Shown here piece by piece: positions 18,400 through 37,900 of a stretch of 64,000 bases of DNA. Made by a program: the position numbers and the translations under genes. Origin of the DNA: Takakia lepidozioides (lineage: Eukaryota; Plantae; Bryophyta); assembly GCA_030704615.1 (NCBI GenBank), contig CM060731.1:76446001-76510000 (forward strand). Direction: 5' to 3'. The first letter of the stretch is position 1. Each line of letters starts with the position of its first letter. The notes below the pieces were generated by a model. The model ran no database searches. It had not been told where the DNA came from and was given only the letters and a program-made list of their open reading frames with translations.

Positions 18400-18413
18400 C
18401 TACAAGAAGATGA
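18400..18413 (+). promoter_or_regulatory. Putative self-priming PBS of the outer element
   Basis: CTACAAGAAGATGA directly follows TTATCA and is the exact reverse complement of TCATCTTCTTGTAG (18158-18171) in the same terminal repeat. Confidence 0.75.
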
Positions 18414-19710
18414 CCTTATGCTTGTGAGTGCGGAGTGTAAGGATTAGTTTTGCATTTGTATTTTAAAAAGGTTGAGAGCTAGGAGAATTTAGCTCTTGTA
18501 TCACAAGGCTTGCAAGGGGTTGCAAGGAAAGGTGCTCGAGTATTGCATGCACCAAGGAGTTGGAGAGCTTGAGAAGAAAGCTCTTGAGTCACAAGATTTT
18601 GCAAAGATTGTAAGGAGGAAGTCTTGTGTGTGTGGAAGCATGGATTCTAGGGTTTGAGAATCATTTGTATGCATTATGGAGTCGATGGTGTGCGCTATGG
18701 CTTGTGGAGAGTGACTAAAGGCTTGTTAGTGCTCATTTCACTATCAAGCTAGGGTTAAGCAAGTTCAAAGTGTGGATGTTGTGGAAGAGAAGCCAATGAG
18801 CTATATATGCTTGGGCTTGAAGACAACAAGGGCAAGCACTTGGAGAGCACTAAGAAGCTCAAGAGGTTTTGAAATGGAGCATGTGAAGAAATCTTCCAAT
18901 CATGGTGGTGTGGAGCCAAACTTAGTATGCCATTGGAAGGGCTTGGAGAACATGTGGTGGGAAATCCTTGAAGGGAAATCATCATTCAATGTATGCATAG
19001 CTTCACCCTAACTATGTAATGTGACAAGAGGGGGAGGCAATACTTGGCTATTCATGCTCTTGGTAGTGCGAGTTTTGTGGTGGATAGTTGACCAAGCAAG
19101 TGGTGCATGTGTGGAGCATGCTCGCTTGACTTTGTAAGTTCAAGTTTGAGAAGGGGAGCTCTTGAACTAGCAAGAGGTGAAGGCCTTTGAGATCCATTTG
19201 TGTGTGAAGTGGAGAGGTGTTGATTCATGTTATGATAAAGGAGAGCAACACATAGGCCAAGAGGTCATGAAACATGCATTCAAATGACCACGGGGAGCAC
19301 ATGGATGATGGATTGGTGCAAGACCCCAAATGAGGCATATGGCGTGAGAGTGGGATCCAAGGCGGATTGCTTGGGAGCATTATTGTAAGTGACAAGCATT
19401 GCTCCTACACATTGAGATAATTTGTGTTGATTTGGAGCAATTGTCAAGTGATGAGGAGACAAATGCATGATTGCTCGGCAATGGAGATATGGTAGTTTGC
19501 AATCAAATCCCAAGGACTAGAAGATGGATTGATTTGGTGGACAATGACTTGCAAGTTGAGTTGGACCACTCTTGGTTGCACATTGGGGTGGAAGAGAGCA
19601 AGAAGATGCCTCTTATGACCACCTAGAGACCATATTTTTGCTTGAGTAAAAGCATAGAAGTCAAGGACTTGCATTCTAGCTCTTCATTACAAACCCTAGT
19701 AGTGTATGCT

Positions 19711-20105
19711 CAGACTATACCTCTGTTAGTATACCAAACATGAGCTTGTCCCTTTGACTATACCTCTGTTGAGGTATCACCATATGTGAACCCTAATGTG
19801 AGACTATACCTCTGTTAGTATACCAAACATGAGCTTGTCCATTTTACTATACCTCTATTGAGGTATCACCATATGTGAACCCTAATCAGCTCAGACTATA
19901 CCTCTGTTAGTATACCAAACAGGAGCTTGTCCCTTTTACTATACCTCTGTTGAGGTATCACCATATGTGGACCCTAATCAGCTCAGACTATACCTCTGTT
20001 AGTATACCAAACAGAACCCTCATTTTCAGACTATACCTCTGTAAAGGTATCATCAACATAAGGGACCCTAGCAACCTCAGACTATACCTCTGTTAAGGTA
20101 TCAAC
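19711..20105 (+). repeat. Tandem repeat in the outer element leader (~44/45-bp subunits, ~89-bp higher-order unit)
   Basis: About nine copies of (G/T)ACTATACCTCT(G/A)T, alternately followed by TAGTATACCAAACA or TGAGGTATCACCATATGTG. Confidence 0.9.
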
Positions 20106-20885
20106 AGTGAAAGGACTTGGGTGAAATTTAAGGGCATTTGGAGGATTGTTTGAAAGATATTTGAGGGCCCTTGAAGGAGTATTTGGAGGATCTTTGGGGT
20201 CCTTGGAGGAGTGTTTGGAGGATCTTTGGGGTCCTTGGAGGACCCTTCGAGGAGCTTTGGTGACAATGTTGAAGAGCTCTTGAAGGATTGATTGAGGGAT
20301 ATTGAAGGATACTTGCCACGGCCATACAAGCGAGTGGATAGAGACAGGATGGAGAGTGGTGGGATGAGAGCATTCTGGGGTTAGGAATTGCTTTAGTTTC
20401 TCTTCTCCATAGTCTTTCACCCTCTCTGTAGGCCAAAACCTTTCCGTAGGTGGAGGCAAGAGTCAGTCCGGGTTTGGGCTGGGGTGTCCTTACAGGAGCG
20501 ACACTGTGGAGTGTTTTTGGTGTGGGGGAGTTGCTGTCTTGATTTTCTTGTGTTTGGATCCCCTCCACACCTGCATGCTTGACTGTGCGTCATGTTAGCT
20601 TTGTGTAGGCGCTTGTTTTCATAGGAGGTTGGTCCGGATTTGATCACCGGCCAATCCTAGAATATGCTGTCGGTGGTGAGGCTGGAGTGATGACCAGCCA
20701 GACCATCATTGTTTCTCCTGTGGTGAGGTTGGAGGTGATGACCAGCCAACCATAAGAGTGCTTGCGGTGGATGCAGGTACAGGTGTAGGCTATGTTAGGA
20801 ACTTAGTATTCCAAACCATAAGCCGCAACAGGTTCTCTACCCGGTTACCTTGTGGAGAGGGGGTTAGGGACATGTTCATGACCGG

Positions 20886-23015
20886 TTGAGTGTCAACACG
20901 GAGGTGCCACTAGTTGCTGGGGACAGTGCTGGTTTGAGCACTAGCGATACTAGTGGGTACACGAGACGAGGTGTGCGGTTTAGGCCACATTCACCTCCCG
21001 TGTCTTTTACGAAAGGTTCTGATTCGGATTGTGAATCAGGAGGACTCATACCGGCGGTGCAAGTTGTTTCTTTGCCATTGTTGTGGGACACAATGGAGGA
21101 GATGTATGGAGCTACCAAGGGGCCACGAAGGTACTTTGGGGCGGTGGGCACCATCGAGTTGGATGATTTTATCCAAGAGTTTGATAGTTGGTGTGATTTG
21201 TAGCAAATGCGCAATCCACAGCTATTTACGCCTTTCATGGCATGGAAGGGGCTGTTTCAGCACCTTGAAGGGCCGCCTATAGATGATTACCATGAGTTCA
21301 GGCGGGGGCATGAGGTTGAGATCGAGGAGTGGAGGATGTACTGGTCACCCGACTATGTCTCCATCACTAGGGGCACTAGAGCCACGAGGGCAGTGGCTAC
21401 ATCTGCCGCTGCACCGGCAGCTTCAGCAAGTAGCAGTGGGACTGGTGGTACAGTAGCTACGATGTCCACCCAAGCCACTACCACACCAGCACTAGTACCC
21501 GTGCCTACCTTCAACCTTGTTGTGGAGTTCTTCGAAGAGTTGAGAGGGAACTACCAAGGGGTGAGGACAGAGAAGTTGCGGAGCTTGCAAGAGTTCCAAC
21601 GGAAGCCGACCGAGAGCTTGAGGAAGGCTTTCACTCGCATGAGGCGCTTGATAAATGTAACCCAAGGGGTTACGGAAGCTCAGGCAGTCCAATTCTGGTA
21701 TGGGATATTGGACAAGGAGCTGAGGAGAAGGGTGCAGGATGCAACTCTCCTACAAGCGGCCCAACCCACCTTAGCAAATGTGTTTTTGCTGGCAAAGCGG
21801 ATAGAGCTCAACATGGTGGAGGAACGAGTGGTCATGGTGGGATTTGCTAAGGAGACACCACGGGGTAGTGGTGCTCCTAGCCAACCACTACCTCAATGTG
21901 CTCAAGGCAACAAGGGGGCTCAAGTGAAGCTCAGGGAAGGGCAGAGAGGACCTCAGATGCAGGGGTCTCTCCCTTCATTTGCTGGCCAACAACGGGCGGA
22001 TGTGGTGTGCTGGACATGTAGAGGACCCCATGTCAAGAGAGATTGCCCAGAGAGTGGCAGAAGGCCGGCACAAGCACAGCCTGCACAGTTGCAGTGTGGG
22101 CATTGTGGCAAGTATGGGCATGGAGATGCCCAGTGTTATGACTTGCACCCTGAGTTGCGCCCAGGCCAATTCCAAGGGAACAATGGTGGCCGGGGGCGAG
22201 GTGGACCAGCCCAGAGAGGACGAGGTGGTCGGGCACGAGGTGCAAGCCAAGGGCAAGCTCAACATGGCCAAGGACGCGGAGGTCAGGGTGTTGACCAAGA
22301 CATGGCCAACCGGCTTCAGCAGCTAGAGCAAAGGCTCGCTGCCATGGCTATAGCTCAGGTGGTACCGGCTCCCAGGCGGGATGGTCCACCTCCTGCTCCC
22401 GAGGGAGGAGATATGGGAGGGATGGGATTCATGTGCGGAGCAGCACTACCACTAGTGCAGGTGGAGTCTGCTGTAGCCGTGACTCGAGGAGCAGCACGAG
22501 TTCCTGAGCCACGAGGTGCAGAGGTGGAATTGGATCCACAGCGTGGGGAGGCAAGTCGTCAGGCGAGGCTTCCTCAGTCATTCACATTGGTGGAGACAGT
22601 GTCGACGCCACCATGGCACCTAGTTCTCGCCCGACTGTTACCGAGGTGGAGGTTACTATGCCATTGGGGAGAGCTACACGTGCAGCACTAACACCTGCTA
22701 CCAAGGCTAGTGCAGCCGGTGTGTTATTGGGGGCAGCCACCTCTGTGTGTCAAGCCCCACTGTTCTCGGCAACCATGATTGCGACACCGGGGGTAAGACC
22801 AGCTGCAGTGTTCAGACTAGCAGCAACACTCTGCGAGAGTGGGGAGGTCACTTCATCTTCTGTAGAGTTACTGGAAGGTGTAGTGGCAGAGGGATCCTCG
22901 GATTTGAGGGTCAAGACTGCCACAACTGCGCCATGGCAAGCTGCAGCTGCCAGATTGATGGAGCTGCCAGCTAGGCCAGCCTTTGAACGCACCATGGTGA
23001 CACCTGGAGTTGTCT
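20886..23015 (+). pseudogene. gag: Outer element gag (disrupted)
   Basis: Highly similar to the inner gag. Has a CAG>TAG stop at 21201, a frameshift near 22610 and is cut by the inner element at 23015. Two zinc knuckles and an RGG region are retained. Confidence 0.9.
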
Positions 23016-23203
23016 TGTCGTGCGCATACATATCGCTACACAACTACATCGCTGTCCAAAACCACACAACACATGTGCACACCACAGACTAGTATACCAC
23101 TAGTCTACCACTAGTCCAGCCACTACTCCAACCACTAGGCTACAACTAGTCAGTCACTAGGCTGCCATTATGCTGCCCACTATGGCAGTCACTAGTCCAC
23201 ACA
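23016..23203 (-). repeat. Terminal repeat segment A, copy 1 (188 bp)
   Basis: Identical by eye to 23534-23721. Contains many CACTAG/ACTAG motifs. Confidence 0.95.
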
Positions 23204-23204
23204 A

Positions 23205-23531
23205 TGATAAAGAAGAAGAATACAAGCACAAGCTCATGCGAGCTCACAAAGCTGAAGCATAAACTCATGCATATATAACCTCATCACTCAAATACAAGTC
23301 AAGCCAAGTGCACCCCACGCCATGGGGAATCCACACTACGGCGCCATAGCTAGGCGCGGTGAGGCTCAACTCGAGAAAGATGAGCCTCCCGCGCTTGCCG
23401 TGAAGATAACCACTCCAGGGCCTAAATCTGCCTTGACCCCTGGATTGACACTTGGGCCAATCCCAAATGTCAATATGTAAAAGCTAGCTATTTCCTAGCT
23501 AGTTTCACACTAGTGGTAAAATAACTTGACA
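23205..23531 (-). repeat. Terminal repeat segment B, 3' copy (327 bp)
   Basis: Matches 34603-34929 with two substitutions seen (AGAAGAAG/AGAGGAAG and GATTGACA/GATTAACA). Confidence 0.95.
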
Positions 23532-23533
23532 GC

Positions 23534-23721
23534 TGTCGTGCGCATACATATCGCTACACAACTACATCGCTGTCCAAAACCACACAACACATGTGCACAC
23601 CACAGACTAGTATACCACTAGTCTACCACTAGTCCAGCCACTACTCCAACCACTAGGCTACAACTAGTCAGTCACTAGGCTGCCATTATGCTGCCCACTA
23701 TGGCAGTCACTAGTCCACACA
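23534..23721 (-). repeat. Terminal repeat segment A, copy 2 (188 bp), directly after the PPT
   Basis: Separated from B by the dinucleotide GC inside the palindrome GACAGCTGTC (23528-23537). Confidence 0.95.
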
Positions 23722-23733
23722 ATCGCCCCCCTA
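23722..23733 (-). promoter_or_regulatory. Polypurine tract (plus-strand primer)
   Basis: The minus strand reads TAGGGGGGCG-AT-TGTGTGG: a G-tract, a short spacer, then the TG start of segment A, downstream of the integrase stop. Confidence 0.7.
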
Positions 23734-23981
23734 GCTGGTGCTTAGGTCCCTCTAAGTCCAGGTAGCCACAAGATGTGATAGTGACCATAGCCTCACTAAG
23801 TCCTCCACCATTATCCCTACTACACTCAAACTCGATAGATCAAGAGGCCGGGTGCAAGAGTTGCCCCATCATTAGTCGCCGTCTTGCAACCTGTGAACTT
23901 GAGCTTGGGATCTCATGTATTGACTCCTATGAGCTTGGCCTCCCATGTCTTGTTAGCTGCCTCCAGTCATGTCCACTGCCA

Positions 23982-25943
23982 CTATCCCAAGCAGTGTGGA
24001 CACAACCAATCTCCGTCAGGAACCTTCTCAAGAGGTGGTGTCAAGCATCCCATATGCCAACCCCTTGAGCATCGATCACACACCAGCATGGTGGCTGCCC
24101 CTTTGGCAGACCCACAGAGCATGCACCTCAAACCTGCAGGTACCACTGCCAAGTTTGGGTCAACTCTACCATCGACATTGGGAAGGTGACATGGCGCACA
24201 ATTACGCACATGGTCTTTCCAAGTCATGTCATCCCGACCCTCTAAGATCAGGACCCCTGAGGGCAACACCTCTCGAACCCTCAGAATAACACGCCCTGCA
24301 GTAACATCCAGAGTCGTAGGAGCAGTCTGCTGCAAATAAACATAGTCACCAGGGCTAAACCTCCAAACCCCAGGACGATATCCTCCACCACGTATAGTGG
24401 CATACCTCAACGTATCACGGTACTGTGCAATGGCAAGGTTCTCAAAAGCCATGGGCATGACTTTCTTGAACAACTCTGCACGCTGATCACATGCACGTAC
24501 CCACCTGTCCGGATCGTCAAGGTTAAGGACTTGAGCAGTGTCCCTACGAATGGCTGCAGGCAAATCCGGCTCTCGGCCAAAGAGAAGGAAATATGGTGAG
24601 AAGGAGGCAAGTGATGCTTGTTTGCTGAACCTGTAGCCCATGGCTAACCAAGGAACCTGAAGATCCCAATCTCCTAGGTGTCCCTTCTGCAAGCCATACT
24701 TGCGCAAACCCCTCTTCACCGTCTGAACAACTCTCTCTGCTAAGCCATCGGCCTCAGGATGATCCCGAGAAGTGGTGCGGTGGTCTATCAAGGCTTTATT
24801 ACACAAAGCCTGAAACTCCCCCAAGAACTCTCTCCCTTGGTCCGTGAGTACCTCAGCTGGAGCACCAAATCGGCTAAGCACACAATCCAAGAATGCATAC
24901 GCAGCCCCCTCACTAGCCTTGTCAGGCAATGGAACCAACTCAATCCACTTGGAGAAGTGCTCCACCATCACCAACACATATCTGTGGTGGCGCATAGTCA
25001 GTGGCAACGGTCCTGCGAAGTCAAGACTCCACCTGTAGCCCAATCCCATGATAGGTAAAGGATGCAACTGTGGTGTAGGGGCGTTGAATGAAGCACGCAC
25101 CCTGTCACACACCATGCACCTAGCCACAAACTGTTGCACCTCTGTATGCATACCACGCCACCAATACTGCCCCTGCAGTAAACTGTGAGTGCGTCGCACT
25201 CCAAAATGCCCCAACTCCTCATGGGCATGCCGCACTAACCGTGCACGCTGTGTGGGGTGAGGCACAATCCTCACCCGACCATCCTCCCACACTCGAAGTA
25301 GGTGTATCCCCTCCCACTTGAACCTCTTGGCTCGTTGCAGGATCCGATCCCTCTCCCTGGCAGTCACAATGGCTGCCGTGTCTCCCGTGCGGAGGTAGTC
25401 CAACACAGCCGAATCCTCATGTATATCTCTGGCACCACCTAGCTCATCACTAGCCTCAGGGTCCTCAGACACTCCGTCTACAGTCATCCCTGTTGTAGGT
25501 CCAATCTGACCTCCCGATGCCAAGATACACAAAAATGCAGATGCGTGCCATCCCGACACCATCTCCTCGTCCGTCTCACCATGCCACCGAGCTCCAGTGT
25601 CATCCTGCTGGCTCATGCATGGATTGCGACTCAATCCATCCGCATCCCGATTGACCAAACCCGGTCGATGCACAACCTGAAAGTCATACTCCTGGAGTAT
25701 AAGTGCCCACCGTGCAAGCTTCCCTGTAAGCTTGTCTGACTCCATCAACCACTTGAGTGGCTGGTGATCCGTGACAAGGGTGAAAAGATTGCCGTATAGA
25801 TAGCACCTGAAGTGTGCCACGGCCCACACTGCAGCTAAGCACTCTCCCTCATATGAGCTGTACTTAGCCTCTGCAGCGTTGTTCGAGCGGCTAGCGTAAG
25901 CCACTACGAACTCTCTTCCCTCATCATCCACCTGTGTGAGCAC
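23982..25943 (-). CDS. pol: Pol C-terminal part: RNase H, integrase (HHCC, DDE) and C-terminal PHD finger
   Basis: RNase H (VAYASR..YSSYEGECLA..LVTDHQPL..LARWAL.LQEYDF), Zn-binding HAHEELGHFG..CMVC, catalytic WSLDFAG / LTDQGREF / GLAERVV, and PHD CMLC..MLVCDRCSRGWHMGCL.PPL..VPDGDWLCPHC. It joins the RT ORF across a +1 G (C5 run 25953-25957) that is absent from the outer copy. Confidence 0.93.
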   Translation of the reverse strand: MLTQVDDEGREFVVAYASRSNNAAEAKYSSYEGECLAAVWAVAHFRCYLYGNLFTLVTDHQPLKWLMESDKLTGKLARWALILQEYDFQVVHRPGLVNRDADGLSRNPCMSQQDDTGARWHGETDEEMVSGWHASAFLCILASGGQIGPTTGMTVDGVSEDPEASDELGGARDIHEDSAVLDYLRTGDTAAIVTARERDRILQRAKRFKWEGIHLLRVWEDGRVRIVPHPTQRARLVRHAHEELGHFGVRRTHSLLQGQYWWRGMHTEVQQFVARCMVCDRVRASFNAPTPQLHPLPIMGLGYRWSLDFAGPLPLTMRHHRYVLVMVEHFSKWIELVPLPDKASEGAAYAFLDCVLSRFGAPAEVLTDQGREFLGEFQALCNKALIDHRTTSRDHPEADGLAERVVQTVKRGLRKYGLQKGHLGDWDLQVPWLAMGYRFSKQASLASFSPYFLLFGREPDLPAAIRRDTAQVLNLDDPDRWVRACDQRAELFKKVMPMAFENLAIAQYRDTLRYATIRGGGYRPGVWRFSPGDYVYLQQTAPTTLDVTAGRVILRVREVLPSGVLILEGRDDMTWKDHVRNCAPCHLPNVDGRVDPNLAVVPAGLRCMLCGSAKGAATMLVCDRCSRGWHMGCLTPPLEKVPDGDWLCPHCLG

Positions 25944-27117
25944 CGCTCCAAGCCCCCAGCATGCTCCAATCCGTATGCAGCTGAAAGGGACGCCCCCTGA
26001 TAGGTCGTCTCAAGATAGGCGCCGAGGTCAACCTCGCCTTGAGCTCTTGAAAAGCTCGTTCCTGCTCATCTTCCCACTGCCACTCCTGGTCCACCTTGGT
26101 CAGCTTGGTTAGAGCCTTTGCAATGGTACTAAATCCCTTGACAAACCGTCTATAATAGTTTGCCAACCCCATGAAAGCTCGAACTCGGCTCACATCCGTG
26201 GGGCGTGGAATTTGTGCAATGGCCTCTACCTTAGTCTGCTGTACCCCCAATCCTCCAGGATATATCATGTGACCCAGATACTCAATCTGGTTGTGGAAAA
26301 ACTTGCACTTCCCCGGATGCAACTTCAATCCGTGCGCTCTCAAGCGCTCCAATACCACCTGAAGGTGTCTCTCATGCTCCTCCATCGTAACACTAAAGAT
26401 GATGATGTCATCTATGTAGCACCGAGCAAAGTCCACCCCTGCTAGAATCCTATCCATGACTCTCTGAAACTCTGCAGGAGCATTCTTAAGCCCAAATGGT
26501 AAGAACCGCCACTGATATAGGCAATCCTTGCCGTGCTCATTGATCCCCCAGAATGCCGTCTTCTGCTTGTCCGCCTCCTTGATTGGCAACTGGTGATATC
26601 CGGATCGTAAATCCAAAGTGCTAAAGGCCTTAGCATGCCCGATGGCATCAAAGATCTCCTCTGGTGTTGGCATGGCATACTTATCGGACTTGGTCTGACG
26701 ATTTACAGGCCGGTAATCACCGCACATACGTCTCTCCGTCCAATTGCCATAGACATCCTTCTTGGCTGGCATCACTGTGGCTGAAGCATACTCTCCACCA
26801 GAGAGCTCCACCAAACCTGCCTCCCAGAGATCTTGAGTCCTCATCTGAATCAAAGACCTCTCCATGTCACTGTATCTATAGGGTCTCCGAAAGATTGGCG
26901 TGTCAGTGGCCAACTCAATACGGATCTCTTGACCCTTCAGTGCTCCCAAGTCCTTCAAACTGAAGGCAAAGCAATTCCTGTAAGCCCTCAGGAACCGCCG
27001 TATACGTCGTCTCTCTCCTCCGGTGACAATGGGTCCAATGTCAGGCTCCCAATTGTCCTCCGTAACTACAACCTTAAGTCCAGTGGGCTTAGAGGTAGAG
27101 GACGCGTCCCGTGGTTG
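25924..27117 (-). CDS. pol: Reverse transcriptase (Ty3/Gypsy), in frame after the leaky TAG at 27118-27120
   Basis: Motifs RMCGDYRPVN, FSTLDLRSGYHQ, LPFGLKNAPAEFQR, YIDD, YLGH, FMGLANYYRRF. The frame is open for 53 codons from the upstream TAG to the called start at 26958. Confidence 0.93.
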   Translation of the reverse strand, partial: QPRDASSTSKPTGLKVVVTEDNWEPDIGPIVTGGERRRIRRFLRAYRNCFAFSLKDLGALKGQEIRIELATDTPIFRRPYRYSDMERSLIQMRTQDLWEAGLVELSGGEYASATVMPAKKDVYGNWTERRMCGDYRPVNRQTKSDKYAMPTPEEIFDAIGHAKAFSTLDLRSGYHQLPIKEADKQKTAFWGINEHGKDCLYQWRFLPFGLKNAPAEFQRVMDRILAGVDFARCYIDDIIIFSVTMEEHERHLQVVLERLRAHGLKLHPGKCKFFHNQIEYLGHMIYPGGLGVQQTKVEAIAQIPRPTDVSRVRAFMGLANYYRRFVKGFSTIAKALTKLTKVDQEWQWEDEQERAFQELKARLTSAPILRRPIRGRPFQLHTDWSMLGAWSGAHTGG

Positions 27118-29058
27118 CTATGCTGCAACCTCTTGAGCAGTACTCCCTACCTGCTCAGTCAATGACAAGGCATCATCCTGCCCCATCATCTCATCCTTGA
27201 GGACCTCCTCAACTCGAGAAGAATCCCCAACCTCATCCATCACAGCCGCCTTGGCTGCCAACTCCCTCTGAACCTCGAGCACCTCCCACGTGTGCCATGG
27301 ATGCATGCACCCCGTGGTCCTCATATGCTCGCCCCCACTCACTGCCTGTACCGTCTCGGTAGGCAGAGAGACCATTGAGGGAAGTGTATTCCGCACTCTG
27401 CGTTGCTCAGCTAGAGCCAAGCTGATAATCCAGGTCAAGCAATTGAGATCCATTGCTTGCCCCAACACTTGACGACGTGATGCCTCAGAAAGAGACGACA
27501 CCGCCGTGGTACCAGTGGTAAAACCCATTGCCCGCTCACGCTCGTCAGCATTAGGCTCCACTAACTGCTGCAACTGAGCATCCCACAGGAGGCCAGGTCC
27601 ACTATCCCGGAAAGCATGCGATCCTGGGAAGCTGAGCAGTGTAGGTAATGCTGCTCGTGGTTGACCCACCTTGTTGACCACTGCCAAAGGCGAACGGTCA
27701 TCGTGTCTCACACGTTGAGACTGCCTCCCTGTGTCCAGAATGTTATCCACTGTGAGATGTGCTGGCCGCTGCACCCCATCAAATGCACGCTTGAGCAGTG
27801 CGGGTGGCATCATGTTAGTCCACCATAGCCGTGGACGATGAGCCCGTGACCCCACTGTAGCTGCATCTAGCAACACTGCTGACCCAAGCCACGACCGGAC
27901 TTGATGCACACTGGCCATCACCCTGGCCCGAGAATCGCCCATCAGTGGCACATTCTCCAAGATGTATGCTGGAGATACAGCTTGATGAAGCTGCAAGTGG
28001 CGCAAAACCCGCACCATCTCCCAAAACAGACCCGACCTCGAGTCTCGCAATCCATTGCCATGCCCGGCTGATGAATGCCCTTGGCAGGGCCAACCTGCCA
28101 CTACCAGATCAATGGAGCCAACCCGCTCCAAATCCTGCGCCCCCAGCAACGAAATGTCTGCTGGCAAGGCCTGCTGATATCCACGAATTGCAGACACCGA
28201 CAACAACTCAGGGTACCGCTGCACCAACTGAGCAACATGGCGAAGTGAAACGCGTCGTGCAGTCTCATCCCTCTCCACATACAGGTAACGCCGAACTCGT
28301 ACACCTGCCTGTAACACAGCAGCCAATCCGGTGCTGATCCCGCCAAACAAGTCCAGAAGACAAATGCCTTCATCCGGAGACTGCCACACAATAGGTGTGG
28401 TGTCCAATGGAGACAATTGAGGTGGTCCTGGTGCAATCCCCACACTCTCCTCCTCTCCTGACGGTACAAAAGCCTCCACCCAGGCTTGTTGCACCCGTCG
28501 ATCAGCATCCCGCTGCAAATCCTTGCTCGTGCCCCACAATGGAGTCTGAGCAACCATGGTAGGCAACTCCGCCATACCATACATGTCATCCTGCTCTCCC
28601 GGAGGTGGTACATCCTCTGAATGAGCATTGCCCTCAAGCAACTCTCTAGGCCAACTCACTGCCGCTGTGAATGCTGCTAGTGTCGGCATCTTGCCTCGCT
28701 GGGCAACCGCAACTCCTCCTATGAACGTCACAGGGAGCTGCACACGCCGGCCCTCCCCTGACTGCCATGCAGGCCTATAGGAAGCTGACTCCTCCCAAAA
28801 ATCCAGGGTGAAGCCCATGGGGTACAACACTGCCCCACCAACCAGGACATCGTATGAGACTGCGTCTGTCACAATGGCCTTGGCTCGCATCACTGAGCCA
28901 TCTGTAGGGTGATCCGGCCGTAGTCTGATAGCCAACTCATGCCGTGTCATGCCCCGAGCCTGCTCCGATCCTCCCAGAGACGTCTGTATCTGGAAAGGAC
29001 AAGGCTCCATATCCGCCTCCGTGAGGCCCAAGCCTGCAATAGCAGCTCTGCCCAGCAT
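27118..29058 (-). CDS. Aspartic protease C-terminal part fused to a DNMT3-like C5 cytosine DNA methyltransferase (~27410-28370)
   Basis: Protease YDVLVG. MTase motifs in canonical order: I LDLFGGISTG, II YVERD, III ADISLL, IV LVVAGWPCQGHS, VI YILENVP, VIII AHRPRLWWTN, IX ERERAMGF, X RRQVLGQAMD. Confidence 0.92.
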   Translation of the reverse strand: MLGRAAIAGLGLTEADMEPCPFQIQTSLGGSEQARGMTRHELAIRLRPDHPTDGSVMRAKAIVTDAVSYDVLVGGAVLYPMGFTLDFWEESASYRPAWQSGEGRRVQLPVTFIGGVAVAQRGKMPTLAAFTAAVSWPRELLEGNAHSEDVPPPGEQDDMYGMAELPTMVAQTPLWGTSKDLQRDADRRVQQAWVEAFVPSGEEESVGIAPGPPQLSPLDTTPIVWQSPDEGICLLDLFGGISTGLAAVLQAGVRVRRYLYVERDETARRVSLRHVAQLVQRYPELLSVSAIRGYQQALPADISLLGAQDLERVGSIDLVVAGWPCQGHSSAGHGNGLRDSRSGLFWEMVRVLRHLQLHQAVSPAYILENVPLMGDSRARVMASVHQVRSWLGSAVLLDAATVGSRAHRPRLWWTNMMPPALLKRAFDGVQRPAHLTVDNILDTGRQSQRVRHDDRSPLAVVNKVGQPRAALPTLLSFPGSHAFRDSGPGLLWDAQLQQLVEPNADERERAMGFTTGTTAVSSLSEASRRQVLGQAMDLNCLTWIISLALAEQRRVRNTLPSMVSLPTETVQAVSGGEHMRTTGCMHPWHTWEVLEVQRELAAKAAVMDEVGDSSRVEEVLKDEMMGQDDALSLTEQVGSTAQEVAA

Positions 29059-31286
29059 CAGTGGGCTCCCGAGTCCAACAAGACTCGCAGTGGCCGGTAC
29101 CTCTTGCCTGCCGGTCCACTCAAACAGAAAATGCCATCCTGGTTGTCTAACATGACAACTCCAGGTGTCACCATGGCGCGCTCAATGGCTGGCCTAGCTG
29201 GCAGCTCCATCAACCTGGCAGCTGCAGCTTGCCATGGCGCCGCCGTGGCAGTCTTGACCCTCAAATCCGAGGATCCCTCCGGCACTACACCTCCCACTAT
29301 CTCCGCAGAAGATGAAGTAACCTCCCCACTCTCACAGAGTGTAGCTGCCAGCCTGAACACCTCAGCTGGTCTTACCCCCGGCGTCGCAATCATGGTAGCC
29401 GAGAACAATGGAGCCTGGCACACAGATGTGGCCGCTCCTAGCAGCACACTAGCTGCCGTAGCCTTGGCAACACTAGGTAGTGGTGCTACCCGTGTAGCTC
29501 TTCCCAATGGCATAGTGACCTCCGCCTCGGTAACAGTCGGGCGAGAACTAGGTGCCATGGATGGCGTCGACACTGTCTCCGCCAATGTGAATGACTGAGG
29601 AAGCCTAGCCTGACGGCTTGCCTCCCCACGCTGTGGATCCAACTCCACCTCTGCACCTCGTGGCTCAGGAACTCGTGCTGCTCCTCGAGTCACGGCTGCA
29701 GCAGACTCCACCTGCACTAGTGGTAGTGCTGCTCCACACATGAATCCCATGCCTCCCATATCTCCTCCCTCAGGAGCAGGAGGTGGACCATCCGGCCTTA
29801 GAGCCGGTACCACCTGAGCTGTAGCCATGGCAGCGAGCCTCTGCTCTAGCTGCTGAAGCCGGTTGGCCATGCCTTGGTCAACACCCTGACCTCCGCGTCC
29901 TTGGCCACGTTGAGCTTGCCCTTGGCCTGCACCTCGTGGCTGGCCACCTCGTCCTCTCTGGGCTGCTCCACCTCGCCCCCGGCCACCATTGTTCCCTTGG
30001 AACTGGCCTGGGCGCAACTCAGGATGCAAACTATAACACTGGGCCTCTCGATGCCCGTGCTTGCCACAATGCCCACACTGCAACTGTGCAGGCTGTGCAT
30101 GTGCCGACCCTTTGCCTCCCTCTGGGCAATCCTTCTTGACATGGGGTCCTCCACATGTCCAGCACACCACATCCGCCCGTTGTTGGCCAGCAAATGAAGG
30201 GAGAGACCCCTGCATTTGAGGTCCTCTCTGCCCTTCCCTGAGCTTCACTTGAGCCCCCTTGTTGCCTTGAGCACGTTGAGGTAGTGGTTGGCTAGGAGCA
30301 CCACTACCCCGTGGTGTCTCCTTAGCAAATCCCACCATGACCACTCGTTCCTCCACCATGTTGAGCTCTATCCGCTCTGCCAGCAAAAACACATTTGCTA
30401 AGGTGGGTTGGGCCGCTTGTAGGAGAGTTGCATCCCGCACCCTTCTCCTCAGCTCCTTGTCCAATATCCCATACCAGAATTGGACTGCCTGAGCTTCCGT
30501 AACCCCTTGGGTTACATTTATCAAGCGCCTCATGCGAGTGAAAGCCTCCCTCAAGCTCTCGGTCGGCTTCCGTTGGAACTCTTGCAAGCTCCGCAACTTC
30601 TCTGTCCTCACCCCTTGGTAGTTCCCTCTCAACTCTTCGAAGAACTCCACAACAGGGTTGAAGGCAGGCACGGGTGCTAGTGCTGGTGCGGTAGTGGCTT
30701 GGGTGGACGTCGTAGCTACTGTACCACCAGTCCCACTGCTGCTTGCTGAAGCTGCCGGTGCAGCGGCAGGTGTAGCCACTGCCCTCGTGGCTCTAGTGCC
30801 CCTAGTGATGGAGACATAGTCGGGTGACCAGTACATCCTCCACTCCTCGATCTCAACCTCATGCCCCCGCCTGAACTCATGGTAATCATCCATAGGCGGC
30901 CCCTCAAGGTGCTGAAACAGCCCTTTCCATGCCATGAACGGCGTAAATAGTTGTGGATTGCGCATTTGCTGCAAATCACACCAACTATCAAACTCTTGGA
31001 TAAAATCATCCAACTCAATGGTGCCCACCGCCCCAGAGTACCTTCGTGGCCCCTTGGTAGCTCCATACATCTCCTCCATTGTGTCCCACAATAATGGCAA
31101 AGAAACAACTTGCACCGCCGGTATGAGCCCTCCTGATTCACAATCCGAATCAGAACCTTCCGTGGAAGACACAGGAGGTGAAGGTGGCCTAAACCGCACA
31201 CCTCGTCTCGTGTACCCACTAGTATCGCTAGTGCTCGAACCGGCACTGTCCCCAGCAACTAGTGGCACCTCCGTGTTGACACTCAA
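29058..31286 (-). CDS. gag: Gag (capsid, two zinc knuckles, RGG-rich region) running into the protease active site DSG
   Basis: Capsid-like region, knuckles CWTCGGPHVKKDC and CGHCGKHGHREAQC, RGG repeats, and VLLDSGA. A 4-nt loss right after DSGA relative to the outer copy splits it from the next ORF. The first in-frame ATG is MEEMYG at ~31079. Confidence 0.9.
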   Translation of the reverse strand: MSVNTEVPLVAGDSAGSSTSDTSGYTRRGVRFRPPSPPVSSTEGSDSDCESGGLIPAVQVVSLPLLWDTMEEMYGATKGPRRYSGAVGTIELDDFIQEFDSWCDLQQMRNPQLFTPFMAWKGLFQHLEGPPMDDYHEFRRGHEVEIEEWRMYWSPDYVSITRGTRATRAVATPAAAPAASASSSGTGGTVATTSTQATTAPALAPVPAFNPVVEFFEELRGNYQGVRTEKLRSLQEFQRKPTESLREAFTRMRRLINVTQGVTEAQAVQFWYGILDKELRRRVRDATLLQAAQPTLANVFLLAERIELNMVEERVVMVGFAKETPRGSGAPSQPLPQRAQGNKGAQVKLREGQRGPQMQGSLPSFAGQQRADVVCWTCGGPHVKKDCPEGGKGSAHAQPAQLQCGHCGKHGHREAQCYSLHPELRPGQFQGNNGGRGRGGAAQRGRGGQPRGAGQGQAQRGQGRGGQGVDQGMANRLQQLEQRLAAMATAQVVPALRPDGPPPAPEGGDMGGMGFMCGAALPLVQVESAAAVTRGAARVPEPRGAEVELDPQRGEASRQARLPQSFTLAETVSTPSMAPSSRPTVTEAEVTMPLGRATRVAPLPSVAKATAASVLLGAATSVCQAPLFSATMIATPGVRPAEVFRLAATLCESGEVTSSSAEIVGGVVPEGSSDLRVKTATAAPWQAAAARLMELPARPAIERAMVTPGVVMLDNQDGIFCLSGPAGKRYRPLRVLLDSGAH

Positions 31287-31509
31287 CCGGTCATGAACAT
31301 GTCCCTAACCCCCTCTCCACAAGGTAACCGGGTAGAGAACCTGTTGCGGATTATGGTTTGGAATACTAAGTTCCTAACATAGCCTACACCTGAACTTGCA
31401 TGACCATGGGAATATCATGAAGATACTCCTCAAACCGCCCTCCACGAGCTTCAAAATTCGGCCTTCCAGACCACATGCCAGTCCTTAGTCCACCAGTGCC
31501 TCCACGAGT

Positions 31510-33365
31510 CAGCACAGGCCCACACAGCTCACTGGTCACAGCCGTCACAGTCCCACAGGCCACTGGGCACAGCCTGTCACAGCCCCTCACAGCTCGTCAC
31601 AGCCTCAAAAGCCTCAGGCACAGCTAGTCACAGCCCGTCACAGCCCGTCACAGCCCCAAAGGCCTCAGGCGCGGCCTGTCACAGCCCCTCACAGCCCGTC
31701 ACAGCCCCAAAGGCCACGGGCACGGCCTGTCACAGCCCCTCACAGCCCGTCACAGCCTCAAAGGCCTCAGGCACGGCCTGTCACAGCCCATCACAGCCCC
31801 AAAGGCCTCAGGCACGGCCTGTCACAGCCCCTCACAGCCCGTCACAGCCCCAAAGGCCTCAGGCGCGGCCTGTCACAGCCCCTCACAGCCCGTCACAGCC
31901 CCAAAGGCCATGGGCACGGCCTGTCACAGCCCCTCACAGCCCGTCACAGCCTCAAAGGCCTCAGGCACGGCCTGTCACAGCCCCTCACAGCCCGTCACAG
32001 CCCCAAAGGCCATGGGCACGGCCTGTCACAGCCCCGCACAGCCCGTCACAGCCCGTCACAGCCTCAAAGGCCTCAGGCACGGCCTGTCACAGCCCCTCTC
32101 AGCCCATCACAGCCCCAAAGGCCTCAGGCACGGCCTGTCACAGCCCCTCACAGCCCGTCACAGCCCCAAAGGCCTCAGGCACGGCCTGTCACAGCCCCTC
32201 TCAGCCCGTCACAGCCCCAAAGGCCTCGGGCACGGCCTGTCACAGCCCCTCACAGCCCGTCACAGCCCCAAAGGCCATGGGCACGGCCTGTCACAGCCCC
32301 TCACAGCCCGTCACAGCCGCAAAGGCCTCAGGCACGGCCTGTCACAGCCCCTCACAGCCCATCACAGCCCCAAAGGCCATGGGCACAACCTGTCACAGCC
32401 CGTCACAGCCCCACAGGCCTCAGGGCACAGCCTGTCACAGCCCCAAAGGCCACTGGGCACAGCCTGTCACAGCCTGACACAGCCCGTCACAGCCCCACAG
32501 GGCATAGGGCACAGCCTGTCACAGCCCATCACAGCCCATCACAGCCTCAAAGGCCTCAGGCACGGCCTGTCACAGCCCCTCACAGCCCATCACAGCCCCA
32601 AAGGCCATGGGCACAGCCTGTCACAGCCCGTCACAGCCCCACAGGCCTCAGGGCACAGCCTGTCACAGCCCCGCACAGCCCGTCACAGCCCCAAAAGGCC
32701 ACTGGGCACAGCCTGTCACAGCCTGACACAGCCCGTCACAGCCCCACAGGGCATGGGCACAGCCTATCACAGCCTGTCACAGCCCATCACAGCTTGCCAC
32801 AGCCTGTCACAGCCCGTCACAGCCCGTCACAGCCGCAAAGGCCTCAGGCACGGCCTGTCACAGCCCCTCACAGCCCATCACAGCCCCAAAGGCCATGGGC
32901 ACAGCCTGTCACAGCCCGTCACAGCCCCACAGGCCTCAGGGCACAGCCTGTCACAGCCCCGCACAGCCCGTCACAGCCCCAAAGGCCACTGGGCACAGCC
33001 TGTCACAGCCTGACACAGCCCGTCACAGCCCCACAGGGCACAGGGCACAGCCTATCACAGCCCATCACAGCCCATCACAGCCTCAAAGGCCTCAGGCACG
33101 GCCTGTCACAGCCCTCACAGCCCATCACAGCCCCAAAGGCCATGGGCACAGCCCGTCACAGCCCCACAGGCCTCAGGGCACAGCCTGTCACAGCCCCGCA
33201 CAGCCCGTCACAGCCCTAAAAGGCCACTGGGCACAGCCTGTCACAGCCTGACACAGCCCGTCACAGCCCCACAGGGCACAGGGCACAGCCTGTCACAGCC
33301 CATCACAGCCTGTCACAGCTTGCCACAGCCCGTCACAGCTTGCCACAGCCTGTCACAGCCCCACA
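31510..33365. repeat. ~1.85-kb tandem array of 10-11-bp TCACAGCC-core units in the inner element leader
   Basis: Units such as TGTCACAGCCC, CGTCACAGCC and CTCACAGCC with spacers AAAGGCCTCAGGCACGGCC, in a ~42-bp higher-order period. Confidence 0.97.
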
Positions 33366-34586
33366 CATGGCCGCTCTGGCAGTTTAGCCATTTCTCCAAG
33401 GGGTTTAGCCACGCCAAGCTAGGGTTTGTGTCTCTTGGACTCTAGGCTTCTTTCCACCGAGCTATGGTGGCTGTGAGGAAATCAGCAAGGTATCCTTGCT
33501 CTTTCGGCTCCCACACACCACCATAGTAGCCCTAAGCCATGAGGTGGTTGCCACAAACCAAGCCTTCTTTCTCACTTAGCCTACCCAAACACGCCACTAA
33601 ACTCAATGGCAAACAACCAAGCCCTGCTGGTTCCCAGCCCTTGTGAGCACTCATTCAAGCACTCTCCTTGGCCATAGCATCTGTCTTAGAGCCTCTTCCA
33701 GCCCCCTACACCTGCTGCTTCAAGAGTTGCGCTCCCTTCAAGCTTGAAGTTGAAACCCCAACTCACATAGGCCCTACAAGTGCTTTTCTTTCACTCCAAG
33801 TGGAAACCAGCCCTTCCCTCTTCTTTGCTTGCCCTCCAAGCTTGAAGATGGAAGCTTCAATGAGCTGAATACATGCTCCACACATACAACCTCTTCACAC
33901 AAGAGATATCAGCCCCCTATCTTGGCTCCTTGGCTCCTTGATGCTCTCTAAGACAAGACTAAGCACTCCATAGCCTTTGCCAAGCTCCTGAAACCCTAAG
34001 GCTTACATTTCCAGCCACAAGACACTTCTCTTGTGGTGCAAGAGCTCTTCTTCCAAGCTCTGTAACCCTAGGTGCACATTCCATGGCCTTGCCGCACCTC
34101 TTAGCTCCTGTTCCAGCCCTGCTCTCGCCATGACAAGAGCCCTCTCAATACTGAAGCTCGAGATTGAAACCCAATCTCACCATACTCCACAAAGTGCACT
34201 GATTTGCCCCAAGCCAAATCAGCCCTTTCGCTTGGTCTTGCAATCCTTCACACAATGACAGCTCGCATTCCCAAGTCCAGTTCTCAGCTTTGCCACCAAA
34301 GCCACCATAACCTGCTCTTGACTGGTCCTCTTCCCAATCGTGCTTGCTCATGCATGTACACAATCTGAAACCATCAAGGTGCTCTGGAATTACCTACAGT
34401 ATGGTGCTTTCATCTCTGAAGCTGAAGATCGAATGCCAAGGTTTACCACCTCGTAACCCACATCGCCTCCGCTTCTAACAACCAAGAGCTCCACGGTGCT
34501 CCTTGCATAACAACTTGGTTTCTCTCATTCTCAAGCAAAAACCACAAGTGCTACAACTAACTCGTATCTAGCACTCATAGATACGA

Positions 34587-34602
34587 GCTCATCTTTCTCG
34601 AG
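34587..34602 (-). promoter_or_regulatory. Putative self-priming PBS of the inner element
   Basis: Minus-strand CTCGAGAAAGATGAGC directly follows TTATCA of the 5' B repeat and is the exact reverse complement of minus-strand GCTCATCTTTCTCGAG (34768-34783) inside B. There is no TGG-type tRNA PBS. Confidence 0.8.
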
Positions 34603-34929
34603 TGATAAAGAGGAAGAATACAAGCACAAGCTCATGCGAGCTCACAAAGCTGAAGCATAAACTCATGCATATATAACCTCATCACTCAAATACAAGTCAA
34701 GCCAAGTGCACCCCACGCCATGGGGAATCCACACTACGGCGCCATAGCTAGGCGCGGTGAGGCTCAACTCGAGAAAGATGAGCCTCCCGCGCTTGCCGTG
34801 AAGATAACCACTCCAGGGCCTAAATCTGCCTTGACCCCTGGATTAACACTTGGGCCAATCCCAAATGTCAATATGTAAAAGCTAGCTATTTCCTAGCTAG
34901 TTTCACACTAGTGGTAAAATAACTTGACA
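34603..34929 (-). repeat. Terminal repeat segment B, 5' copy (327 bp)
   Basis: TGTCA...TTATCA on the minus strand. Not preceded by segment A. Confidence 0.95.
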
Positions 34930-34933
34930 GTCT

Positions 34934-37900
34934 TGTTAGACAACCAGGGAGACATTCTCACTTTGAGTGGACCGGCATGCAAGAAGTACCGGCCACTGCG
35001 GGTCTTGTTGGACTCAGGAGCTCAGCCACTGATGTGGCAGAGCTGCTATTGCAGGTTTGGGCCTCATGGAGGCGGATATGGAGCCTTGTCCTTTCCAGAT
35101 ACAGACATCTCTGGGAGGATCAGAGCAGGCTCGGGGCATGACACGGCGTGAGTTGGCCATTGGACTACAACCAGATCATCATGTAGATGGCTCAGTGATG
35201 CGAGCCAAGGCCATTGTGACAGATGCGGTCTCTTACGATGTCATTGTTGGTGGGGCAGTGTTATATCCCATGGGCTTCACCCTGGACTTTTGGGAGGAGT
35301 CAGCATCATACAGGCCTGGATGGCAGTCAGGGGATGGTCGTCGTGCACAGCTCCCTGTGACATTCATTGGGGGTATTGCGGCTGCCCAGCGGGGCAAGAT
35401 GCCAACACTAGCCGCCTTTACAGCTGTAGTTAGTTGGCCTGGAGAGTTGCTGGAAGGCAATGCCCATGCAGAGGATGTGCCACCTCCAGCAGAGCAGGAT
35501 GACATGCATGGTACGGCGGAGTTGTCTGCCACGGTTGCTCACACTCCATTATGGGGTACGAGCAAGGATTTGCAGCAGGCTGCTGATGGACGGGTACAAC
35601 AAGCCTGGGTAGAGGCCTTCGTACCGTTAGGAGAAGATGAGAGTGCGGTGATTGCACCAGGACCACCTCAGTTGTCACCATTGGACACCACATCTCTTGT
35701 GTGGCAGTGCCCGGATGAAGGCATATGTCTTTTGGACTTGTTTGGCGGGATCAGCACTGGATTGGCTGCAGTACTGCAGGCAGGTGTACGAGTTCGACGT
35801 TACCTGTATGTGGAGAGGGATGAGACTGCACGACGTGTGTCACTGCACCATGTTGCTCAGTTGGTACAGCAGTACCAACTGATTTGTTGCCAATGTCTGC
35901 AGTTCGTGTATACTAACAAGCCTTGCCAATAGACATTTCGTTGCTGAGGGCGCAGGATTTGGAGCGGGTTGGCTCCATTGATCTGGTAGTGGCAGGTTGG
36001 CCCTGCCAAGGGCATTCATCAGCCAGGCATGGCAATGGATTGCGAGACTCGAGGACGGGTCTGTTTTGGGAGATGGTGCGGATTTTGCGTCACTTGCAGC
36101 TTTATCAAGCTGTATCTCCAGCATACATCTTGGAGAATGTGCCACTAATGGGTGATTCTCGGGCCAGGGTGATGGCCAGTGTGCGTCAAGTCCGGTCGTG
36201 GCTTGGGTCCGAAGTGTTGCTGGATGCAGCTGCAGTGGGGTCATGGGCTCATCATCCACGATTATGGTGGACTAACTTGATGCCACCCGCACTGCTCAAG
36301 CGTGCATTTGATGGGGTGCAGCGGCCAGCACACCTCACAGTGGATAGCATTTTGGACACAGGGAGGCAGTCTCAACGTGTGAGACACGATGACCGTTCGC
36401 CTTTGGCAGTGGTCAACAGGGTGGGTCAACCACGAGCAGCATTACCTACACTGCTCAGCTTCCCAGGATCCCATGCATGGTGGACCTGGCCTCTTGTGGG
36501 ATAGCCAGTTGCAACAATTAGTGGAGCCCAATGCTGACGAGCACGAGCGGGCGATGGGTTTTACCACAGGTACCACGGCGGTGCCATCTCTTTCTGAGGC
36601 ATCACGTTGTCAGGTGTTGGGGCAAGCAATGGATCTCAATTGCTTGACCTGGATTATCAGCTTGGCTATGGCGGAGCAGCGCAGAGTACGGAGTACACTT
36701 CCCTTCATGGTCTCCCTGCCTACCGAGACGGTATAGGCAGCGAGTGGGGGCGAGCAGGTGAGGACCACGAGGTGCAGGCCGCATCCATGGCACACGTGGG
36801 AGGTGCTCGAGGTTCAGAAGGAGTTGGCAGCCAAGGCGGCAGTGATGGATCAGGTTGGGGATTTTTCTCGGATTGAGGAGGTCCTCAAGGATGGGATGAT
36901 GGGGCACGATGAGACATTGTCACTGACAGAGGAGGCAGTGGTCATTGCTCAAGAGGTTGCAGCATAGCAACCACGGGACGCGTCTTCTACCTCTAAGCCT
37001 GCTGGACTCAAGGTTGCAGTCACGGAGGACAACTGGGAGCCTGATGTTGGACCTATAGTCACCGGAGGAGAGAGACGACGTATACGACGGTTCTTGAGGG
37101 CTTACAGGAAGTGCTTTGCCTTCAGTTTAAAGGACTTAGGAGCACTGAAGGGTCAAGAGATTCGCATTGAATTGGCTACTGACACGCCAATCTTTCGGAG
37201 ACCCTATAGATACAGTGACATGGAGAGGTCCTTGATTCAGATGAGAACTCAGGACCTTTGGGAGGCTGGTTTGGTGGAGCTATCTGGGGGAGAGTATGCT
37301 TCAGCCACAGTGATGCCAGCCAAGAAGGATGTCTTTGGCAATTGGACGGAGAGACGTATGTGCGGTGATTACCGGCCTGTAAATCGTCAGACCAAGTCCG
37401 ATAGGTATGCCATGCCAACACCAGAGGAGATCTTTGATGCCATCGGGCATGCCAAGGTCTTTAGCACGTTGGATTTACGATCCGGATATCACCAGTTGCC
37501 GATCAAGGAGGCGGATAAGCAAAAGACGGCATTCTGGGGGATCAATGAGCACGGGAAGGATTGCCTATACCAGTGGCGGTTCTTACCATTTGGGCTTAAG
37601 AACGCTCCGGCAGAGTTTCAGAGAGTCATGGACAGGATTCTAGTAGGGGTGGAGTTTGCTCGGTGCTACATAGATGACATCATCATCTTTAGTGCTACGG
37701 TGGAAGAGCATGAGAGACACCTTCAGGGGGTATTTGAGCGCTTGAGGGCGCACGGATTGAAGTTACATCCAGGAAAGTGCAAGTTTTTCCACAACCAGAT
37801 TGAATATCTGGGTCACATAATATATCCTGGAGGATTGGGGGTACAGCAGACTAAGGTAGAGTCTATTGCACAGGTTCCACGCCCCACGGATGTGAGCCGA

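Follow-up and report, generated by a model that had tools for sequence, protein, structure and literature searches.

Why retrotransposons retain an enzyme that their hosts use for silencing has been an open question since 2018, and the known carriers, Symbiodinium and Klebsormidium, are hard to manipulate. The question is raised again by a stretch of 64,000 nucleotides from the moss Takakia lepidozioides (assembly GCA_030704615.1, contig CM060731.1, positions 76,446,001 to 76,510,000 of the forward strand), called here the window, whose own numbering is used throughout. A preliminary description of this DNA had reported a long terminal repeat (LTR) retrotransposon with a cytosine methyltransferase inside its polyprotein. 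The carrier, referred to as the inner element, was found inserted in an outer element of the same family. Judged from its sequence, it is well supported as anatomy, being real and conserved, and what is said below of its function is a proposal. Statements on the cited literature refer to the accessible parts of each source.

The preliminary description had placed an unpermuted C5 methyltransferase of about 320 amino acids between protease (PR) and reverse transcriptase (RT), with PCQ, ENV and RxR intact in the inner copy. Both points were confirmed: a domain of 328 amino acids lies there within the minus-strand frame 27118-29181, its motifs follow one another in the order I to X, and PC, ENV and RxR are all intact.

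27409..28392, minus strand: DNMT3-like C5 cytosine methyltransferase domain of the inner element (class by profile and predicted fold), all catalytic motifs intact
28350-28339, 28281, 28081 and 27957, minus strand: motifs LFGG, YVE, GWPCQ (its end) and ENV of this domain
27846, 27543 and 27477, minus strand: motifs RAHRPR, ERERAMGF and RRQVLGQ of this domain

The PF00145 hidden Markov model, the check suggested at the outset, matched the domain well above its cut-off (E=1.1e-12, 48.5 versus 22 bits). Identity as a DRM enzyme, which needs motifs VI-X ahead of I-V, was rejected on the motif order. When a profile of 72 family sequences was compared with the PDB, the scores were 86 bits for DNMT3A, 77 for DNMT3B, 45 for DRM, 30 for HhaI and 26 for DNMT2; four phage enzymes scored 66-71 bits with this profile, and the single-sequence query placed phage enzymes (50-58 bits) above DNMT3A (48 bits). 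The AlphaFold2 model of the domain (predicted local distance difference test score, pLDDT, 95) matched DNMT3A end to end in Foldseek (TM 0.73, root-mean-square deviation 3.2) at 22% identity to the human protein, and the best viral model matched more poorly (TM 0.66, deviation 7.5). By profile and predicted fold the domain is classed as a DNMT3-like C5 methyltransferase, and it is quite likely to be active in catalysis. The earlier view that motif spelling points to DNMT3 was upheld as to the class, DNMT3A and not DRM being the best match, but not as to the argument: phage methyltransferases share the spelling of motifs I, VIII and X with the moss domain, and spelling alone is therefore no proof of descent from a host DNMT3. 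That descent rests on the published tree, where the relatives from Klebsormidium form part of a divergent Dnmt3 clade (PMC5890265), our own methyltransferase tree having been built without host DNMT3 sequences. The unpermuted DNMT3-type fold is common to human DNMT3A and the host DNMT3 of non-seed plants (PpDNMT3b, PMC6453930), the latter being likened by description and not by alignment; unlike these host enzymes, the moss domain is intronless, stands in a retroelement frame and has a divergent target-recognition region.

A recent bacterial or phage origin was considered and rejected, since the best genuine prokaryotic matches were just 24-36% identical over long stretches and the two strong "bacterial" matches proved to be retroelement contigs. 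A scan of IMG/VR gave 13 pattern matches, none of them a relative of the family. Two contigs placed in bacterial bins (L085 and L086; Synechococcales, Cyanobium) are whole retroelements of the family, and a close homolog (P0019) is labelled Obscuribacterales; contamination of the bins with eukaryotic DNA is the likely explanation of these labels.

The methyltransferase is under purifying selection. The ratio of nonsynonymous to synonymous substitution (dN/dS) between the inner and outer copies was 0.27 for the methyltransferase and 0.14 for the RT (Fisher p=3e-7), and in a distant family it was 0.135 (L042/L044) and 0.13 (L042/L046). Among common variants of the host family, of which 40 of 52 were tallied, 15/26 were synonymous in the domain (p=5e-4) versus 4/14 in the tail. 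The catalytic Cys was kept in 208 of 214 near-full-length homologs, the Glu of ENV in 213 and the two Arg in 209 and 206, and the frequent loss of PCQ or ENV named beforehand as evidence against an enzyme was not seen among them. The domain might be regarded as a neutral passenger, or as a host gene captured recently in this moss, as the frameshifts in both window copies might suggest, but this reading, hardly credible in our view, is already contradicted by the dN/dS values and the spread of the family. The position of the domain is conserved from Klebsormidium to bryophytes, and the RT and methyltransferase trees divide the same two architectures.

The layout of the two nested elements is given below.

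23016..34929, minus strand: inner element, 11,914 bp, TG...CA ends, order A1-body-B1-GC-A2-B2
23012..23015, second copy 34930-34933: target-site duplication (TSD) GTCT, 4 bp, flanking the repeats
31425..33350, minus strand: 51-nt tandem array in the long 5' leader of the inner element
29061..31304, minus strand: Gag and protease of the inner element, with a weak Retrotrans_gag match
30164-30126 and 30077-30036, minus strand: two CCHC knuckles in the inner Gag
29081-29064, minus strand: protease active site DSGA (retropepsin region) of the inner element
27112..27120, minus strand: in-frame stop TAG (27118-27120) followed by CAA CCA, closing the Gag-PR-DNMT frame of the inner element in a type I readthrough context
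25927..27117, minus strand: RT (YIDD at 26418) and start of RNase H (RH) of the inner element
23985..26009, minus strand: RNase H, HHCC and DDE integrase (IN) and C-terminal PHD finger (24125-23991) of the inner element
17983..23015, plus strand: 5' part of the outer element, with its own A repeat, a different leader and gag
about 17983-18399, plus strand: outer A repeat, its start placed from a TGTCA alone
18158-18171 and 18400-18413, plus strand: outer self-primer and its binding site, predicted from pairing
34930..39065, plus strand: 3' part of the outer element, with protease, broken methyltransferase, stop, RT, RNase H and an integrase ending abruptly at 39065
36965, plus strand: TAG CAA CCA of the outer element, in frame at the enzyme/RT boundary

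The inner element sits in the protease region of the plus-strand outer element, whose flanks, when rejoined, match the homologous stretch of the inner copy. Downstream of the methyltransferase, Pfam matches to RVT_1, RNase H, rve and a C-terminal PHD finger were obtained. The order Gag-PR-RT-RNase H-DDE integrase, the TG...CA ends and the 4-bp TSD (4-6 bp being the criterion) are those of Ty3/gypsy elements. Since frameshifts interrupt the inner copy both upstream of the domain (near 29064, just past the protease active site) and in the RNase H (near 25953), it is itself unable to make the enzyme. The domain reported for the outer copy (about 35715-36670) is present (about 35700-36670; LDLFGG at 35732, GWPCQ at 35995, ENV at 36133; PF00145 E=1.4e-12) but damaged, with frameshifts near 35877 and 36477 and RxR decayed to AHHPR; the outer copy, too, is unable to make the enzyme. 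The family is large, 151,762 contigs of a public sequencing run of the same species (X2) falling on a 19-kb stretch, and other same-species copies are free of the breaks at 29064, 25953, 35035 and 35877; copy number and intactness were judged from contigs of public runs. The element had been called a young example in an embryophyte: the host is a land plant and the inner repeats differ at 2 of 517 positions (A1 versus A2, B1 versus B2), but the lineage to which it belongs is old and widely distributed.

The outer gag from 20771 is 94.5% identical to the inner copy and the outer 3' part 91%, and the outer leader contains a 92-nt array. The coding sequences of the two elements are thus 91-94% identical, yet their leaders, A repeats and arrays (51 nt versus 92 nt) are unrelated (17983-20770 versus 31400-34929). 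Such replacement of leader and A repeat, with a compensated pair of primer and binding site, is a sign of leader exchange or fast turnover.

The enzyme had been described as lying inside the polyprotein. It does share the Gag-PR frame, but no single continuous Pol exists, as an in-frame TAG followed by CAA CCA separates enzyme from RT in both window copies. UAG-CAR-YYA is a type I readthrough signal (PMC3542737). When 82 copies were inspected, 53 proved scorable, and 44 of these have a stop in frame with the RT and followed by CAR-YY-N, which occurs in L085 as well; the lineages concerned share as little as 50% identity. The strict CARYYA followed in 7 of the 44, and variants included CAG TTA and CAA TCA in families 50% identical. 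The Gag-PR-DNMT proteins of Marchantia and Calypogeia terminate about 80 amino acids past the domain. Readthrough of UAG is, on these contexts, a quite likely source of RT and integrase. Since the conserved stop follows the enzyme, the methyltransferase would likely be produced at the level of Gag, in excess over RT and integrase, an excess likely to suit an enzyme whose substrate is packaged nucleic acid.

The same stoichiometry would fit coating, and the domain might methylate or coat the element RNA, or bind DNA with no need for catalysis; one KnitGypsy-Dnmt3 domain of Klebsormidium left yeast DNA unmethylated, a result judged inconclusive by its authors (PMC5890265). The nearly invariant catalytic residues argue against such a role, as does a fold and profile of DNMT3 type, with DNMT2 at just 26 bits, and we consider it quite improbable. 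A catalytic, DNA-directed enzyme is preferred.

The ends of the element depart from those of an LTR retrotransposon in the ordinary sense, as which it had been described. A alone stands at the 5' end and B-GC-A-B at the 3' end, where two complete LTRs would be canonical; the ends are split direct repeats.

34603..34929, minus strand: repeat A1, 327 bp, 2 differences from A2, the presumed promoter, R and U5
34768..34783, minus strand: predicted self-primer (RNA 5' end), 16-nt perfect complement of the site after A1
34587..34602, minus strand: predicted primer-binding site for self-priming, abutting the CA end of A1
23723..23732, minus strand: polypurine-tract (PPT)-like site adjoining B1, G-rich and conserved in other families
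23534..23723, minus strand: repeat B1, 190 bp, identical to B2
23528..23537, no strand: palindrome GACA-GC-TGTC at the B1-GC-A2 joint (GACAGCTGTC), predicted integrase cutting site
23205..23531, minus strand: repeat A2, differing from A1 at 2 positions
23016..23205, minus strand: repeat B2, joined precisely to the end of A2

The complement between leader and A repeat is 16 nt long, versus at most 10 nt by chance in 2000 shuffles of A. Four different 14-16-mers keep perfect pairing at distances of 176-242 nt (inner element, outer element, Sphagnum-type family and L042), and a scan of all 80 loci gave four such pairings at A ends and one elsewhere. Self-priming of the Tf1 type is, from this pairing, predicted with high confidence. 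The palindrome consists of the 3' end of the element, two bases and its 5' end. The long form A-body-B-GC-A-B was found in 6 of the 17 Sphagnum-type loci with a 3' end, besides the window element; its TSDs of 4 bp matched in the window and in all three long-form loci scored at both ends (L053, L066 and L079), and the palindrome is kept in L017, L053 and L046, the last from a family only 50% identical. In 7/7 long copies checked, one of them with a point change, the A2|B2 joint coincides with the boundaries of binding site and PPT. Because PPT and priming site flank B-GC-A, this unit would be the true LTR, and a circular cDNA cut at the internal palindrome is implied. Integration by way of such a circle is, on the layout, the rather more probable route; foamy-virus integrase likewise cuts a palindromic circle junction (PMC1180852).

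The circle route is opposed by the mirror layout A-B-GC-A-body-B, which random cutting of a two-LTR circle predicts and which was seen in 0/19 5' ends, although this absence could reflect collapse in short-read assembly. It would agree with a route in which the split repeats are templated by an RNA that extends through B2 and offers its internal junction for copying, a scheme put forward for elements of the PAT/Ngaro type that needs no end-joined two-LTR circle; the order A1-B1-A2-B2 is also that of tyrosine-recombinase elements. Against templating, B-GC-A is bounded exactly by PPT and self-priming site, which set the A|B joint, and the TG...CA ends, the 4-bp TSDs and the DDE integrase, with tyrosine recombinase absent from the Pfam matches, are not those of such elements. 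We regard templating as unlikely, though the strongest competitor to the circle. The short form A-body-B occurs in 11/17 Sphagnum-type loci (one without room to judge), with TSDs matched in L041 and L043 and bearing one mismatch in L024. It would fit integration of a one-LTR circle but was rejected as support for it, recombination of B by B or assembly collapse explaining it equally. In L042 (8653-9040), priming site and leader adjoin B-junction-A immediately, the arrangement of a one-LTR circle, and this locus too could be a product of assembly collapse.

C-to-T and G-to-A changes are frequent at the central GC of the palindrome (junctions of L036, L042, L063, L066 and L079), in keeping with CHG methylation. 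A guard resembling restriction-modification might be at work, in which methylation of GACAGCTGTC leaves only a single one of the circle's two identical sites to be cut, and none in integrated copies. An uncut palindrome has to survive within every long copy, its centre offers a cytosine on each strand with such changes frequent in aged copies, and Klebsormidium and bryophytes alike combine the methyltransferase with split repeats. But the palindrome cytosines lie in CHG context, and host chromomethylase therefore explains the changes; moreover, no split repeats were found in two enzyme-bearing loci of the chlorophyte type, L077 and L080. Such a guard seems to us rather far-fetched.

Relatives at E<=1e-30 formed 266 clusters (50% identity). 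Named bryophyte relatives came from Marchantia polymorpha (many, up to 75%), M. paleacea, Riccia, Calypogeia and Sphagnum, and algal ones from Klebsormidium (45%), Closterium, Monoraphidium and Scenedesmus; no named vascular-plant match was among those retrieved. Two layouts were distinguished, with the enzyme before the RT (named members: Klebsormidium, Closterium, bryophytes) or between RNase H and integrase (Scenedesmus, Monoraphidium), the latter in 97 of the 127 proteins whose enzyme position could be scored. In a midpoint-rooted RT tree of 78 sequences, all 26 enzyme-before-RT sequences, Klebsormidium included, split from the 52 with the enzyme after RNase H (FastTree support 0.90 and 0.95). 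In the methyltransferase tree the after-RNase-H set clusters and Klebsormidium branches earliest, with weak deep support. As both layouts separate in the RT tree and the methyltransferase tree agrees, capture of the enzyme is old and not fresh.

The Klebsormidium nitens protein KFL_009030040 (P0185) has the order PR-DNMT-RT-RH-IN and is 45% identical in the domain. It was taken as a member of KnitGypsy-Dnmt3, the accessible text of PMC5890265 giving no accession to match it to. KnitGypsy-Dnmt3 is described there as having a Dnmt3-related domain in a gypsy-type polyprotein, low Ka/Ks and DIRS-like repeats, the repeat layout being known from the legend of Fig. 4c and not from its DNA. The moss element likewise has a Dnmt3-like domain between protease and RT, DIRS-like split repeats, and an RT and methyltransferase of common descent with it. 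Because the same layout occurs in Marchantia, Calypogeia, Sphagnum and Klebsormidium, the moss element is placed, on sequence comparison, as a land-plant member of the KnitGypsy-Dnmt3 lineage, to which the charophyte retrotransposon cited at the outset belongs (de Mendoza et al. 2018). It differs in its land-plant host, its abundance and the stop that parts enzyme from RT, the Klebsormidium gene model being without one. In its accessible text PMC5890265 treats the capture as an event of the K. nitens lineage and gives the repeats no mechanism of priming or integration; its species table lists Physcomitrella and Selaginella, with no match for Marchantia.

The larger branch, with the methyltransferase between RNase H and integrase-PHD (L077, L080, L086; P0208, P0196 and others), has chlorophytes as its named members, and no account of chlorophyte Gypsy-DNMT3 elements was met with in the literature covered. 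This position and the PHD finger in which the integrase terminates would suit an active enzyme directed not to free cDNA but to host chromatin at and around new insertions, alongside the integrase. In the moss branch, however, the enzyme lies on the Gag side of the stop with RT and RNase H intervening, and is therefore not tethered to the integrase; this target is judged doubtful, and the element's own cDNA is preferred. The moss domain is nearer to liverwort copies (75%) than to Sphagnum-type ones (about 70%; P0122, P0123, L002), and Sphagnum groups with Marchantia in both trees. Either old paralogous lineages or horizontal transfer among bryophytes would account for the mismatch of domain and host.

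Among other known systems, SymbioDIRS-Dnmt3 resembles the moss element in its DNMT3-type domain, active on CG in yeast (PMC5890265), and shares with PAT, Ngaro and VIPER the order A1-body-B1-A2-B2 (PMC5890265; PMC6681497). All of these use a tyrosine recombinase, in contrast to the DDE integrase, TG...CA ends and 4-bp TSDs of the moss element. Assignment to DIRS-order elements (PAT, Ngaro) was rejected on the rve and Integrase_H2C2 Pfam matches and the lack of a recombinase match. As in the Tf1/sushi and Tcn1 chromoviruses, the self-primer pairs with a site directly past the CA of the 5' LTR (bioRxiv 2022.12.06.519325; PMC6317226), the likeness being one of pairing only. Some of these also use an in-frame stop (same sources), but after Gag, whereas the moss stop follows protease and methyltransferase; they have two full LTRs and a chromodomain, whereas the moss LTR is permuted and its integrase lacks a chromodomain and ends in a PHD finger. 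The accessible text of a survey of plant LTR elements (PMC6317226) leaves PHD unmentioned and confines gypsy self-priming to Tcn1. Troyka, considered as a candidate, is no split-repeat family and was set aside; it has CG...CG ends and a 3-bp TSD and occurs in animals only (PMC12440569). The EpiLTRs of Cymbomonas and Euglena are LTR elements with a cytosine methyltransferase (bioRxiv 10.64898/2026.05.21.726589); unlike the moss enzyme, theirs is sister to DNMT4, with DAM and chromodomain, and the paper separates "streptophyte Gypsy-DNMT3". That paper and PMC12344493 speak of "streptophytes", and methyltransferases are unmentioned in the accessible text of PMC9985172. In the literature covered, which does not extend to Repbase, to subscription journals or to the supplementary trees of PMC5890265 and PMC12344493, where bryophyte sequences may be included, neither such elements in land plants nor a permuted-LTR mechanism was found described.

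Taken together, the moss element would belong to an old Ty3/gypsy lineage whose Gag-side DNMT3-like enzyme is likely packaged in many copies and likely methylates its own circular cDNA, a joint reading that we hold to be evenly balanced. Its RNA would begin at the self-primer in A1. Gag-PR-DNMT would be the main product, with RT-RH-IN-PHD made by readthrough. Tf1-like self-priming and PPT priming would give a cDNA with the LTR B-GC-A at both ends, and joining of these ends would create the A|B joint and a two-LTR circle. Cutting of CA/GC/TG in one LTR by the integrase would then yield A-body-B-GC-A-B with a 4-bp TSD. The co-packaged methyltransferase would mark the extrachromosomal DNA, which would arrive methylated like host chromatin; that its own cDNA is the main target has, in our estimate, an even chance. 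The strengths attached to activity, readthrough, priming, circle and target are judgements and not measurements. A bolder version, in which a PHD-finger gypsy clade of the green lineage, abundant in mosses and liverworts, combines, in a manner not met with for DDE-integrase retroelements in the literature covered, tRNA-free self-priming, circular cDNA and palindrome integration that permutes the LTR, and in which an enzyme at Gag stoichiometry methylates the circle and may choose the palindrome cut, is improbable as a whole.

Besides the missing mirror layout and the yeast result, several findings count against this joint reading. The observed/expected CpG ratio of the element is 0.53, versus 0.53-0.57 in the flanks, with no extra depletion, and C-to-T changes between copies (CG 8.0%, CHG 7.8%, CHH 3.5%) are like those of ordinary host silencing, so that composition lends self-methylation no support. 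The target-recognition region (about residues 195-283) fails to align with DNMT3A by sequence, and the sequence specificity of DNMT3A is therefore not transferable to the moss domain. Nine of the 53 scorable copies have other stop contexts, and most of the 44 are close kin of the Sphagnum type, mostly with CAA CCC and then ATG, so that re-initiation is possible in that family. Perfect 16-nt pairing was found in just 3 of 16 scored Sphagnum-type 5' ends, the others being partly decayed. Between young Sphagnum-type copies dN/dS was 0.40-0.51, as expected from decay after insertion.

Elsewhere in the window, host genes were found at 89-1393, 1968-3303, 9819-10274, 12834-13154, 43263-44549, 48796-49173 and 58775-59275, comprising two F-box/beta-propeller genes, a gulonolactone oxidase-like gene, B12D, an alcohol dehydrogenase, an SPT16 piece and a cupin. 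The closest named relatives of the F-box gene at 43263-44549 were a Sphagnum cluster (69%), Physcomitrium (59%) and Ceratodon (56%), which would point to a moss distinct from these three. A 650-bp duplication (4065-4714 and 7748-8397, 98%) lies beside an old fragment (3890-4052, 74%) of the integrase C-terminus of the family.

The finding contradicts the statement of a 2019 opinion article that land plants lack DNA methylases encoded by transposons, worded in its accessible text around tracheophytes (PMC6338049). Tools that seek two full LTRs would miss ends of this kind, and family copies inflate the methyltransferase gene counts of bryophyte annotations. In Marchantia polymorpha, unbroken Gag-PR-DNMT relatives are annotated as genes, for example Mp4g09160 (1278 amino acids, motifs intact), and since Marchantia is a genetic model, the question of why retrotransposons retain this enzyme becomes testable there.

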